Shown: positions 23,471-26,617, counted from the stretch's first letter. The stretch is 64,000 bases of DNA from Rikenellaceae bacterium (GCA_017936385.1 JAGBFQ010000024.1:4927-68926); one strand, 5' to 3'. Made by a program: numbers and translations. Notes: generated by a model from the sequence alone, not told the origin.

Positions 23471-26400
23471 TTAGCGAACTTTGACCTTCGAGGCTTGTAT
23501 CGAAACCTCCTTTTTAGCCTCCATTGAAATATTACCTTTGGATTTTATTCCAATATCACCATCGGCATTTACACCTATATCACCCTTTGCAATAACATCA
23601 ATATTACCATCTGCACTGACGTTAATATTGTTCTTTGCAACAACCTCGACATCTCCGGCCGAATAGATTGTAATCTTCTTATCATCGGCAGACAAGGTTA
23701 TATGATAAGTGTTATTCTTGTTGTCATATATCTCAAGCAATCCGGCATCACCCTTATCATTGAATAGGATTGTATGACCGTTACGGGTTCTAATAGCCTT
23801 TATATTATTGGTTGTACCATCTTCTTCTTTGGACACAGCCCAGTTCTCATCTGGTTTTCCATTACCACCATTATAGAATGAACCCATGATATATGGACGT
23901 TCGGCATTATTCATCTCAAAACCAACCATAACTTCCTCTCCTATTTCCGGTACAAATTGCAAACCCTTACTTGCTCCAGCATATGGGACAGCAATACGCA
24001 ACCAAGGAGTTTTCATCTCCTTACTTTGTATTTCTTGCCAAGGGAATTGCACACGTACCCGTCCTAATTTTTGTTCATCCTTATTCTCTACAACTTTGGC
24101 TCTTTGTGGCGGCGCATCAGGAAATACATTCGCATTAGAATATGATGGGTAATTACACGAAATAGGTATTGCCCTAAAGCTATTGGAATACTCTTGTTGA
24201 TAATCGAACGAGTGGTTGATTCCTATAACTTTCAGTGTTTTCTGTTCTACATCCTCATTCTCGCCCGATTTATTCTGCACATTATCTCTAATTAGAAACG
24301 TCTGTCCTATTTTCAGCATGGCCAATTTGGAGTATCCATGCACCGTCATCACACCTGTTTTCTTTCCCTGTGCATCTATCGTTAACGAATAATCCAAGAT
24401 TGCATCGGCTCCTTCATCTTCTTTTCCGCAATCGAAACCTCCAATATTCAACGCTACTATTTGCTCATTCTTGAATCTTTGCAACGACGCATTATATGCG
24501 CTATCAGTCCAATCATGCACCACTCCATCAGCAACTCCCCGTGCCGACTGTTTCAAAATAGCTTGATTCTGACCATATTGATAGTAGTTAGGAAGCACAT
24601 GATTGAATGAAAACGAAGTTGTATTTTGTTGTAAATTATAAGACATTAAACTGCCTCCTGGATACTCCAGATTTGCAGTAGAAGAGTTAGAATTATCCAA
24701 CTCTCCGAATACAAATATTTCTCCGGTATTATACATCCATTCGCCAAAGCGTACAGCCAACATACTAATGAATGAATAATCACTTTGGTTATATTGTACT
24801 ATATATGGTATCTTATTCTTAAATCTCGGGGAAACCTTTGATTTCACATCGCCATATGGTTTAAGAACTGATTCCACAATCTCTTTAAGTGTCAGATTCT
24901 CAAAAGAACGACAATGAGGCGCATTTTGCAACAAAGCATCACATGTAGCTACTATTACACTTGCTGATTGCGTACTTGCAGTTGCTCGTGATGCCGAAAC
25001 ATCAATTATTATTCCTTTGAATACAAACGCATTTTGAGAAGAAGAATCTTCATCTAAACTTGTTTTGATTGTTGAAACATGTATTTCTAAGGACTTGCCT
25101 ATGATATTTGATGTGTCACTAAATACAACATCTGAATTCGTTTCTATTTTATCTTCCTTTTCTAATGAAAAGCTCAACATCATAGGTTGAAGCAACTCTT
25201 GCGACAATGAGTAACTACTAAGCCTATAATTCCTTCCATTAATTGTACATGATGAATTTAATGACGCCGTATTTCCATCCAATACGACATTAATCTCACT
25301 AATCATATCTGCACTAAAATCATCATCAGATGAATTACCGCCTCCTCCCGACATAGAATCATCGTTACGAGAAGCTGTGCTACCATTAATAGAAGTTGTG
25401 TTATTGGGGGAGTGTGATATATTTTCTTCTTCTAAAAATTCATCTATATCTTCTTGCTTAAGAGAAGTTGCAAATCCCGTTGATTTGCCGTCTAAATCAG
25501 TATCATAATATTTCTCTTTAAGATACTCTGTACCACCATAATCATTCGGGTCTATTTCTTGAGACAATCTTGATTCTAATTGGCTTAATTCTTTACTCTT
25601 ATTTACAAGGTCTTTGGCAACAACATCTGAATATGCTTTTCTTACAGATGAAATACTATTTTTAATACCACCAATCCCAGCGCCAATATTTCCTTTATGA
25701 AAAGAGCTAACACTTCCTATTCCGATTCCTGCGACTCCGGCTAAAGCACTCGCCGTGCCGATACCCATAGAATTGAAGTTGCCTAACTTCCCTAACAATT
25801 CACTCTTCTTTCCATTAGTAACAGCTGCATATATATTATTTGCTACTGTTGATACTTTAGTTACGGCTGATTGAATAGCTTTCAAACCATTCTCTATTTT
25901 CTTGGCTGCGGCCGCAGGATTTCTCCAACTTCCACCAAATGTGTCACCAAGGCTCATAAAGTCGTCAACTCCAGAAATAGCATCAGACGCGCCATTCTTA
26001 ATCGCCGATGCTGCTTCATACATCTCATCACCAAATTGAACTCGTGCCCAACCTTCAATATACTCTGTGGACTCATCGCCAGTCAAAATTGAAGATAAAT
26101 CACGCAATGTTTGGTCATAACCATTATCAATTTGAGATGCAGCACGAGACATGTCGTCTACAGATACCTTACCAGAAAGTGTATCCGACAATTTATCAAT
26201 ATCATACGAAGCAATAGATACAACTTTCTCGGTGTTCTTTATTTCTTTATCTAAACCGAACTCCTTTTTAAATTCAGAAAGTTTCTTTTCTCTCTTTTCC
26301 TTCTCCTCGTATTCTTTTTTAAGTTGGATTTCTTCAGTAGTTAAGTTATCACCACTTTCCAATTTCTCTTTCAATGCAGCATATTTAAGCAACTTCTCCT

Positions 26401-26617
26401 CCTGCTCCTCAATATGGTCTTTCACAATGGCTTTCGCTTTTAAGAAATCCTCATCATTCTTCTGTTCTCCCAAAGCCTTTTCTAACTCCACAAGTTTATT
26501 ACTTGCTTCTTCTAATTCTTTAAGAGAATTGTAATTAGTCGAAGAAATCTTTAGAGTCTTGCTAATAACCTCATATTTAGTTTTGAAGCGAGCCACTGCT
26601 TCAAGGAAATTGCCCAT
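23471..26617 (-). CDS. tssI: VgrG (TssI) spike protein with ~435-aa N-terminal coiled-coil / glycine-zipper extension
   Basis: 1048 aa in a single ORF. Residues ~437-1048 are VgrG-like (gp27/gp5 region ...GEEVMVGFEMNNAERPYIMGSFYNGG...). The C-terminal beta-helix repeats read NINVSADGNIDVIAKGDIGVNADGDIGIKSKGNI. Residues 1-436 are E/K-rich helices plus GIGTASALAGVAGIGIGS...GNIGAGIGGI and an S/G/D/N linker. Confidence 0.85.
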   Translation of the reverse strand: MGNFLEAVARFKTKYEVISKTLKISSTNYNSLKELEEASNKLVELEKALGEQKNDEDFLKAKAIVKDHIEEQEEKLLKYAALKEKLESGDNLTTEEIQLKKEYEEKEKREKKLSEFKKEFGLDKEIKNTEKVVSIASYDIDKLSDTLSGKVSVDDMSRAASQIDNGYDQTLRDLSSILTGDESTEYIEGWARVQFGDEMYEAASAIKNGASDAISGVDDFMSLGDTFGGSWRNPAAAAKKIENGLKAIQSAVTKVSTVANNIYAAVTNGKKSELLGKLGNFNSMGIGTASALAGVAGIGIGSVSSFHKGNIGAGIGGIKNSISSVRKAYSDVVAKDLVNKSKELSQLESRLSQEIDPNDYGGTEYLKEKYYDTDLDGKSTGFATSLKQEDIDEFLEEENISHSPNNTTSINGSTASRNDDSMSGGGGNSSDDDFSADMISEINVVLDGNTASLNSSCTINGRNYRLSSYSLSQELLQPMMLSFSLEKEDKIETNSDVVFSDTSNIIGKSLEIHVSTIKTSLDEDSSSQNAFVFKGIIIDVSASRATASTQSASVIVATCDALLQNAPHCRSFENLTLKEIVESVLKPYGDVKSKVSPRFKNKIPYIVQYNQSDYSFISMLAVRFGEWMYNTGEIFVFGELDNSNSSTANLEYPGGSLMSYNLQQNTTSFSFNHVLPNYYQYGQNQAILKQSARGVADGVVHDWTDSAYNASLQRFKNEQIVALNIGGFDCGKEDEGADAILDYSLTIDAQGKKTGVMTVHGYSKLAMLKIGQTFLIRDNVQNKSGENEDVEQKTLKVIGINHSFDYQQEYSNSFRAIPISCNYPSYSNANVFPDAPPQRAKVVENKDEQKLGRVRVQFPWQEIQSKEMKTPWLRIAVPYAGASKGLQFVPEIGEEVMVGFEMNNAERPYIMGSFYNGGNGKPDENWAVSKEEDGTTNNIKAIRTRNGHTILFNDKGDAGLLEIYDNKNNTYHITLSADDKKITIYSAGDVEVVAKNNINVSADGNIDVIAKGDIGVNADGDIGIKSKGNISMEAKKEVSIQASKVKVR

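Follow-up and report, generated by a model that had tools for sequence, protein, structure and literature searches.

The subject of this report is an open reading frame (ORF) in a type VI secretion system (T6SS) locus carried by a 64,000-nucleotide stretch of a Rikenellaceae metagenome-assembled genome (MAG; GCA_017936385.1 JAGBFQ010000024.1:4927-68926), referred to as a whole as the window, from whose first letter all nucleotide positions in it are counted. The ORF (23471..26617, minus strand) encodes a VgrG spike protein preceded by a 437-residue extension, which is composed of an accessory leader, a conserved all-helical domain (here called N-dom) and a low-complexity tether. Comparison with homologous loci establishes the anatomy of this protein and, through the pattern of codon changes, its translation as a fusion; it also establishes N-dom as a domain family, the four architectures in which the domain occurs and its presence on one carrier per locus. 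The reading that is proposed here, with somewhat less than even confidence, is that N-dom may be a module for spike binding and loading that is held on a leash and leaves together with the spike.

The ORF is unbroken over 1048 residues, as the sequence-only reading of this DNA had held, and its stop codon lies at 23471-23473. Its product is an exact match to MBP3426134.1, which is on record as a hypothetical protein of a Rikenellaceae MAG. The start codon is located 11 nt downstream of the stop codon of hcp2, and the gaps that flank the ORF measure 11 nt on one side and 17 nt on the other. It comprises leader, N-dom, tether and VgrG, with the VgrG-type Pfam domains confined to the C-terminal 60% of the protein: Phage_GPD (residues 501-779, E = 2.6e-12), Phage_base_V (residues 838-915, E = 1.6e-23) and DUF2345 (residues 972-1045, E = 7e-05). 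The VgrG models of NCBIfam match from approximately residue 505 (~1e-33), below their full-length cut-offs. This portion of the protein (residues 438-1048; 23474..25306, minus strand) is a canonical VgrG, with a gp27-like hub, a gp5 OB fold and a beta-helix, and at 611 residues it has a normal length. The ORF ends inside DUF2345 at residue 1048, all of the extra sequence being N-terminal, with no effector domain at the C-terminus.

The full extension was modelled with AlphaFold2 (AF2) from an alignment of 33 sequences, and it is predicted to be all-helical. Its first 130 residues (26228..26617, minus strand) are recognised by composition, AF2 and alignment as an accessory leader of E/K/L-rich helical hairpins (20% E, 19% K, 12% L), in agreement with the E/K-rich helix proposed earlier for the same residues; the predicted helices run over residues 2-147, with model confidence (pLDDT) above 90 for roughly residues 20-120. 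N-dom follows (approximately residues 131-345; 25583..26227, minus strand) and is the conserved, family-defining part of the extension, delimited by alignments, hmmsearch and AF2, which predicts a helical bundle at residues 130-280 (pLDDT ~70-80). Its best-conserved motif in the alignments, GGSWRNP (residues 228-234; 25916..25936, minus strand), is predicted by AF2 to form the turn between two long helices (residues 197-221 and 234-266), and columns G229, S230, W231 and P234 are nearly invariant in the family. The C-terminal half of N-dom contains a Gly/Ala/Ser-rich and moderately hydrophobic stretch (residues 275-318; 25664..25795, minus strand) with a run of small-xxx-small motifs at residues 279-317, and the model is uncertain over its Gly-rich part (residues 281-330, pLDDT <50). 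The glycine zipper that had been described at residues 275-320 stands as a feature of the window protein, but not as one of the N-dom family, in which it is not conserved.

The remainder of the extension is a tether of S/D/E/G/N/T low-complexity sequence (residues 346-437; 25307..25582, minus strand) that ends in the conserved motif (D/N)(F/Y)SAD. The S/G/D/N linker reported earlier at residues 411-434 is found at that position, and AF2 predicts disorder at residues 359-429. The tether varies in length and sequence, with a median of 75 residues in VgrG fusions and 45 residues in fusions of N-dom to DUF4280, a PAAR-like protein.

Homologues were gathered by a search with the 611-residue VgrG core, from which the best 120 matches were listed; a search with the extension alone gave only three truncated or frameshifted fragments, its E/K-rich words having swamped the word index. 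The 120 listed homologues have 77-100% identity in the core and, save a handful of shorter ones, lengths of 857-1048 residues. The comparison of VgrG lengths that had been recommended with the sequence-only reading proves informative, since an in-frame extension of 247-437 residues is present in 113 of these 120 proteins. The extensions end at the conserved (D/N)(F/Y)SAD-Met junction and represent at least six sequence types that share one core, with a mutual identity of only 25-45%; a short type without the coiled coil (247-287 residues) accounts for 58 of the 113, and the long type of the window for 35.

When the extension of the window is compared with three to four related loci, the differences are in excess at the third codon position: 24/17/94 at codon positions 1/2/3 over residues 131-345 against locus L001, and 71/37/133 against locus L007, which is that of Phocaeicola intestinalis Sa1CVN1. 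In addition, the (D/N)(F/Y)SAD residues before M438 are kept as amino acids while their synonymous sites vary, and a nucleotide-level element looked for upstream of M438 was not found, the synonymous sites there varying freely. This codon pattern shows that the extension is under purifying selection and is translated. It had been considered earlier that the extension might never be made, or that the ORF might be a frameshift artefact; for the window gene, both are contradicted by this selection and by the single ORF found in more than 110 homologues.

M438 (ATG at 25304..25306, minus strand) is present in every homologue that matches the junction motif and, according to the alignment with sister VgrGs, is the ancestral VgrG start, now internal. 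The extension-free sister VgrGs begin with MSISVKNISVxIDG or MIESSVFEIGG, and these align residue for residue with M438-ISEINVVLDG. Since the initiator Met of the sister proteins aligns with M438, the extension was added before an intact VgrG of normal length, and the boundary of the VgrG core that had been placed near residue 437 is borne out, as it is by the C-terminal location of all VgrG-type Pfam domains. Judged on these comparisons, the ORF is a real, translated fusion in which a leader of ~130 residues, an N-dom of ~200 residues and a disordered tether of ~90 residues are joined exactly at the former start Met of VgrG. A different arrangement is seen in L001 (positions 3700-3880), where there is a deletion of ~55 codons with a frameshift and the N-terminal part ends at a TGA that overlaps the ATG of VgrG (ATGA), a split that may be natural or may stem from an assembly error.

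Family alignments of N-dom show the motifs LSxGxVS, (W/Y)D, IKNG, GS(W/Y)R(N/D)P and GIG, and hmmsearch places the domain at residues 128-332 of the window protein. An exhaustive search with the N-dom profile (HMMER) against 1.84 billion representative proteins returned only 55 clusters, 52 of them below 1e-10. In approximately 33 of the 55, one N-dom, or two in tandem, is N-terminal to DUF4280, and many of these proteins end in a toxin (Gln_amidase, RelA_SpoT-like, Ntox46, or PG_binding plus an M23 peptidase); five clusters are fusions of N-dom to VgrG, and in one the domain stands ahead of a Tle1-like phospholipase. No above-threshold match to N-dom was obtained from Pfam, NCBIfam, PHROGs or the sequences of the PDB, the sole PHROGs match of the extension (0.0035) being to a nucleotidyltransferase family. 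A second AF2 model was built for the N-dom core only, from 34 diverse sequences, and a Foldseek search of the PDB with both models, which have a pLDDT of only ~68, gave nothing below E = 0.7 and only generic helical bundles. On sequence grounds, N-dom is a small domain family that has not been described before.

The gene context of N-dom was examined locus by locus, using for the metagenome scan a subset alignment of 6 sequences, as the 21-sequence alignment was too diverse; a profile scan of genome contigs yielded only 3 loci, all of them VgrG-fused. Every locus with enough context has one N-dom carrier, and the carrier takes four forms. In six loci of the window's kind N-dom is fused to VgrG, and the DUF4280 protein is without it. 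In 17 metagenomic loci with a complete VgrG, this protein has 655-687 residues and no N-dom, and its neighbour is a DUF4280 protein preceded by one or two copies of the domain, sometimes followed by a toxin. N-dom is absent from both VgrG and DUF4280 in L011 and L012, where the adjacent gene encodes an N-dom-Tle1 cargo protein and is followed by one for a DUF2931 protein. Finally, in L034 the domain is free-standing, encoded by a gene of 371 codons between hcp2 and vgrG that has its own stop (TGATGA) and ends 7 nt upstream of a vgrG with the canonical Met as its start.

The arrangement in L034 suggests that the window gene may have arisen by loss of the stop codon in a stand-alone N-dom gene upstream of vgrG. 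Loci with the short type of extension (L004, L005, L008 and L009) contain, between hcp2 and vgrG, a separate helical ORF of ~112 residues (positions 9651-9989 in L004), which is conserved, has a short hydrophobic stretch, is found only in loci of this type and, in P0128, is joined to the extension in one reading frame. Residues 1-130 of the window protein are probably the fused equivalent of this ORF; no sequence similarity between the two was detected beyond P0128. Another informative case is L013, a locus of the same type as the window (with genes for an S41 peptidase, a 316-residue protein, TssK, a 176-residue protein, TssF and an FHA kinase), in which N-dom, DUF4280, PG_binding and M23 form one polypeptide of 943 residues (positions 10001-12832), while the window splits these among three genes. 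As M23 is the C-terminus of this N-dom-DUF4280-PG_binding polypeptide, its delivery by the spike is implied in that locus.

Taken together, the four forms and the presence of one carrier per locus point to N-dom as a module of the spike complex that can change carriers, within one T6SS lineage of Bacteroidales. Among the functions of such a module, binding to the spike is the most likely, because N-dom works both as a free protein and as a part of the hub, the tip or a cargo protein, and has a long flexible leash when it is fused. We propose that N-dom may bind VgrG and/or the PAAR-like protein non-covalently and that it would exit the cell together with the spike; on effectors, it would play the part of a loading or adaptor domain of the marker type. 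In the clade of the window, N-dom is permanently tethered to VgrG and present in three copies per spike, and one could speculate that the tandem duplication of the domain in PAAR-type carriers, which are monomeric, offsets this copy number.

Some observations fit this proposal poorly. Proteins that already belong to the spike would seem to have no need of a loading domain, and the VgrG fusion carries no toxin, so that N-dom may have an activity of its own. Moreover, the prevailing view has the N-terminus of the gp27-like hub turned towards the Hcp tube. The identity between extension types (25-45%) is far below that of the VgrG core (77-87%), and such fast divergence is also seen in payloads. 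Lastly, L006 may be a locus without N-dom: its VgrG has only an unrelated leader of ~80 residues and the start of its DUF4280 gene lacks the domain, the contig ending there.

The first of the other explanations takes N-dom for the payload: a helical domain, membrane-active or pore-forming, that would insert its Gly/Ala/Ser-rich helices into the target membrane after delivery, with no need of the tube lumen; it is unlikely, while being the foremost of the alternatives. It would account for the small-xxx-small run of the window type, for the low AF2 confidence of the Gly-rich segment, as expected of a conformationally labile region, for a VgrG fusion without any other toxin next to a DUF4280 protein that also looks toxin-less, and for the rapid divergence of the extension types relative to the core; the alpha-pore-forming toxins AhlB and SmhB appear among the Foldseek matches, though only among the non-significant ones. 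On the other hand, the maximum 19-residue Kyte-Doolittle mean, on this simple scale rather than with a dedicated transmembrane (TM) predictor, is 1.48 in the window protein and lies at 0.65-1.60 in the 41 family members, so that none exceeds the classical TM threshold of 1.6, and in most DUF4280-type copies the helices that correspond to the zipper are largely polar. The gaps of 11 and 17 nt leave no space for an immunity gene beside the window VgrG. The conserved neighbours (the 316-residue protein, TssK, the 176-residue protein and M23) do not co-vary with the extension, being about equally conserved whatever its type, and the sole gene that does so, the ORF of ~112 residues, is fused in frame to N-dom in P0128, which is unexpected for an immunity protein. 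Furthermore, the domain precedes toxins of every kind, including the periplasm-acting M23 and Tle1. In an earlier version of this idea, the extension was cargo facing the lumen and perhaps a glycine-zipper pore-forming toxin. The general notion that a module travels on the spike agrees with the data; the specific form, a toxin in the lumen, is weak, and since N-dom also works from the PAAR tip, it cannot depend on the tube lumen. Next in order, and also unlikely, is an assembly factor, acting once per spike to anchor it, when loaded, at the envelope or baseplate or to prime the growth of the tube, and substituting for TssA or for missing contacts of the membrane complex. One carrier per locus is what such a factor would require, and no TssA, TssJLM or TssN-R is recognisable by Pfam or NCBIfam in the window locus (15042-32448). 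In Proteobacteria, a checkpoint between assembly and effector loading is known, and the N-dom on the cargo lipase of L011 would couple the two processes. TssA is absent from the T6SSiii of Bacteroidales, where tssN and tssP are otherwise near-ubiquitous (PMC13584744, PMC10781749). Against a core assembly factor speak the fast divergence and tandem duplication, which would be unusual for it, the difficulty of reconciling a fixed docking geometry with carriers at both ends of the spike, the hub N-terminus at one and the PAAR tip at the other, the possible absence of N-dom from L006, and the lack of homology to TssA or any Tss family in Pfam and NCBIfam. Somewhat lower in probability is the related proposal that, in this lineage without TssA or recognisable TssN-R, N-dom is an obligatory spike component, one per spike on any carrier, that licenses the assembly or envelope passage of loaded spikes only; if this were true, the VgrG fusion would show that an extension of 437 residues can leave the hub N-terminus, commonly taken to be buried against the tube, and reach the surface of the spike, or else can be kept inside the lumen.

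Another suggestion from the sequence was a fusion of the hub with a domain like a tape measure or tube initiator, which would be located inside the tube lumen. Its place between the tube and hub genes, in the window as well as in the stand-alone form of L034, and its all-helical nature with a Gly-rich hydrophobic part agree with this idea, which is nevertheless highly improbable, the architectures, lengths and PHROGs result all contradicting it. The commonest carrier is a PAAR-like protein encoded after vgrG, in loci whose VgrG is extension-free, and the domain is also fused to a lipase; among loci whose TssC and Hcp1 hardly differ, the extension ranges over 247-437 residues and about half of the VgrG fusions (58 of 113) have no coiled coil; a disordered, low-complexity tether of ~90 residues lies within the supposed ruler; and no phage tape-measure family of PHROGs is matched. 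Besides, the length of the T6SS sheath is not known to be set by a ruler protein. A last explanation, which concerns stoichiometry and is judged apart from the other four, is that the extension is made only in part, translation starting also or mainly at M438 and bare VgrG mixing with extended subunits. The retention, in junction-matching homologues, of a Met that initiates the sister VgrGs speaks for it, as does the split with the ATGA overlap in L001, which may show that such an arrangement is viable. The freedom of the synonymous sites just upstream of the ATG, which give no sign of an embedded initiation element, the conservation as protein of the residues before M438, the purifying selection on the extension and the chance that L001 is an assembly error make it improbable.

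Returning to the proposed module for spike binding and loading, its features can be compared with those of known systems. Evolved VgrGs, such as VgrG1-ACD and VgrG3 of V. cholerae and VgrG2b of P. aeruginosa, also consist of a canonical core and a module that is joined by a linker and rides on the spike. In these proteins the additional domain is an identified enzyme placed at the C-terminus, beyond the beta-helix, whereas here it is all-helical and attached to the N-terminus, at the hub end, and searches of residues 1-437 in Pfam, NCBIfam, PDB profiles, PHROGs and Foldseek gave no family, PDB or fold match that would point to a toxic or enzymatic activity. Effectors with prePAAR and TM domains (Tse6 and Rhs-type proteins, with Eag chaperones) resemble the DUF4280 carriers in having a Gly/Ala-rich helical N-terminal region of moderate hydrophobicity before a PAAR-type domain, followed by a polymorphic toxin. 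They differ in that the PAAR-type domain is here DUF4280, the toxins include periplasm-acting ones, and N-dom is also found on VgrG and free-standing; the prePAAR motif AARxxDxxxH occurs in 0 of 202 proteins, no TM helices are predicted N-terminal to the PAAR domain by the hydropathy scale described above, and there is no Pfam hit to an Eag (DUF1795) chaperone among the neighbours.

The position of diverse toxins behind a single N-terminal domain is the architecture of MIX, FIX, RIX and prePAAR effectors. The same arrangement is present in N-dom, which has Gln_amidase, RelA_SpoT-like, Ntox46, M23 and Tle1 behind it in T6SS neighbourhoods, and MIX, FIX and RIX proteins have genes that adjoin vgrG or PAAR. 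These domains occur in other taxa, whereas N-dom, a domain of Bacteroidales, is also N-terminal to structural spike proteins; the MIX motif hRxGhhYhh was found in 0 of 202 proteins. IglG of Francisella is a PAAR-like DUF4280 protein with a helical N-terminal extension that is required for function (PMC5014421). It is similar to the cases described here in that such an extension sits on a DUF4280 tip in a non-canonical T6SS, and that of IglG binds a partner; it differs in that its extension is short and unrelated in sequence, while N-dom has ~200 residues, occurs in tandem in some proteins and has VgrG, DUF4280 and effectors as its alternative carriers.

The WXG100 and LXG substrates of type VII secretion systems (T7SS) have helical hairpins with an aromatic-containing turn, to which the GS(W/Y)RNP motif of N-dom, placed between two predicted helices, may be comparable, the fold search being non-specific; in some loci a small helical partner ORF adjoins N-dom. 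Their context is a T7SS, while that of N-dom is a T6SS. Pfam WXG100 gives sub-threshold matches in 8 of 20 N-dom members (18.7 bits, against a cut-off of 27.3). Kinship was rejected on account of this sub-threshold score, the lack of any WXG100 chain in the PDB profile search and an hhalign probability of 0.6% in a comparison with six WXG100 sequences. A survey of polymorphic toxins from 2012 tied WXG-like helical N-terminal domains strictly to type VII secretion (PMC3482391). The tape-measure proteins of phages and pyocins are also helical and Gly-rich, and are encoded between tube and hub, as N-dom is in the clade of the window and in L034; in the remaining respects (architecture, length variation and sequence tests) the likeness fails, N-dom being mostly encoded after vgrG, on DUF4280. 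As for the glycine-zipper effectors of the Tse4 and Ssp6 type, a zipper is present in the window type, and it is neither conserved in the family nor accompanied by an adjacent immunity gene.

To our knowledge, the VgrG extensions described so far are C-terminal. Literature searches found no N-terminally extended VgrG in Bacteroidales and no description of N-dom, the only N-terminal extension encountered being that of the PAAR-like IglG, which upholds the earlier opinion that this one is unusual for a VgrG. What is new is a specialised N-terminal module of a new domain family, associated with VgrG and the spike, at an unusual attachment point. A conserved and selected extension at this site raises a structural question regarding the direction of the hub N-terminus and what attaches there. 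By gene fusion, N-dom links VgrG, PAAR-like proteins and several classes of toxins, and from its fusions with several spike proteins one would predict that parts of the spike are in physical contact. With N-dom as a sequence marker, effectors can be sought in a T6SS lineage that is horizontally mobile, has received little study and is found in Bacteroidales of the animal and human gut. There is a cultured carrier, Phocaeicola intestinalis Sa1CVN1, and hence the predictions are testable.

The locus to which the ORF belongs is compact (~15.0-32.4 kb of the window), with all genes on the minus strand in the order NusG-like, ClpV, TssB, TssC, Hcp1, Hcp2, VgrG, PAAR-like DUF4280, M23 peptidase, 316-residue protein, TssK, 176-residue protein, TssF, 248-residue protein, FHA protein and FHA-Ser/Thr kinase. 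ClpV, TssB, TssC, the two Hcp, DUF4280, TssK and TssF were identified within 15042-31751, and TssC and TssD are of the T6SSiii type. The island (~14000-33000) has a G+C content of ~37%, against ~50% elsewhere in the window; no tRNA was seen at its borders, where an integrase was not looked for. Loci almost identical to this one are found in the isolate Phocaeicola intestinalis Sa1CVN1, in a Rikenellaceae MAG and in MAGs of Bacteroidaceae and Bacteroidales, and their near-identity across these taxa indicates that this T6SS moves horizontally. A survey from 2016 found no T6SS in nine Alistipes genomes (PMC4714493).

Some of the relatives (L004, L005 and L013) have genes for an outer membrane protein (OMP) beta-barrel, a 334-residue protein, an S41 peptidase and a protein of ~420 residues upstream of clpV, as well as a PG_binding_1 gene after tssF. 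These genes have no homologue in the window, so that its locus is a reduced version, and it may be that another envelope complex serves this lineage. A NusG/UpxY-like gene (31879-32448, minus strand) heads the operon directly upstream of clpV and occupies the same position in L011, L018, L021, L024, L025, L028 and L031, which suggests operon-specific antitermination as in the polysaccharide loci of Bacteroides.

Downstream of vgrG, the PAAR-like DUF4280 protein of 280 residues (22611..23453, minus strand) is without N-dom, of which it is the carrier in most sister lineages. It contains a Gly-rich stretch that by eye resembles the pre-toxin TG domain (PT-TG), with no Pfam hit, followed by ~55 residues; its homologues in L004, L007 and L009 are longer (393-447 residues), and only 44 nt separate its gene from the next. 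This gives the impression of a PAAR effector that is truncated or has no toxin, and that lacks an immunity gene. The M23 peptidase is encoded by a separate gene (21775..22566, minus strand) and has an N-terminus that was judged by eye to be signal-peptide-like.

On the other side of vgrG lie hcp2 (26629..27078, minus strand), a tssD paralogue directly upstream of it, and hcp1 (tssD; 27149..27559, minus strand). Two Hcp paralogues are present in every locus: Hcp1 (136 residues) is almost invariant across taxa and Hcp2 (131-168 residues) is more variable, and the latter, adjoining vgrG, could be a tube initiator or adaptor. The mechanically called TssC ORF (27587-29092, minus strand; 501 residues) overlaps tssB by 71 nt, and its homologues have 468 residues; the true start of TssC is probably an internal ATG near 28993.

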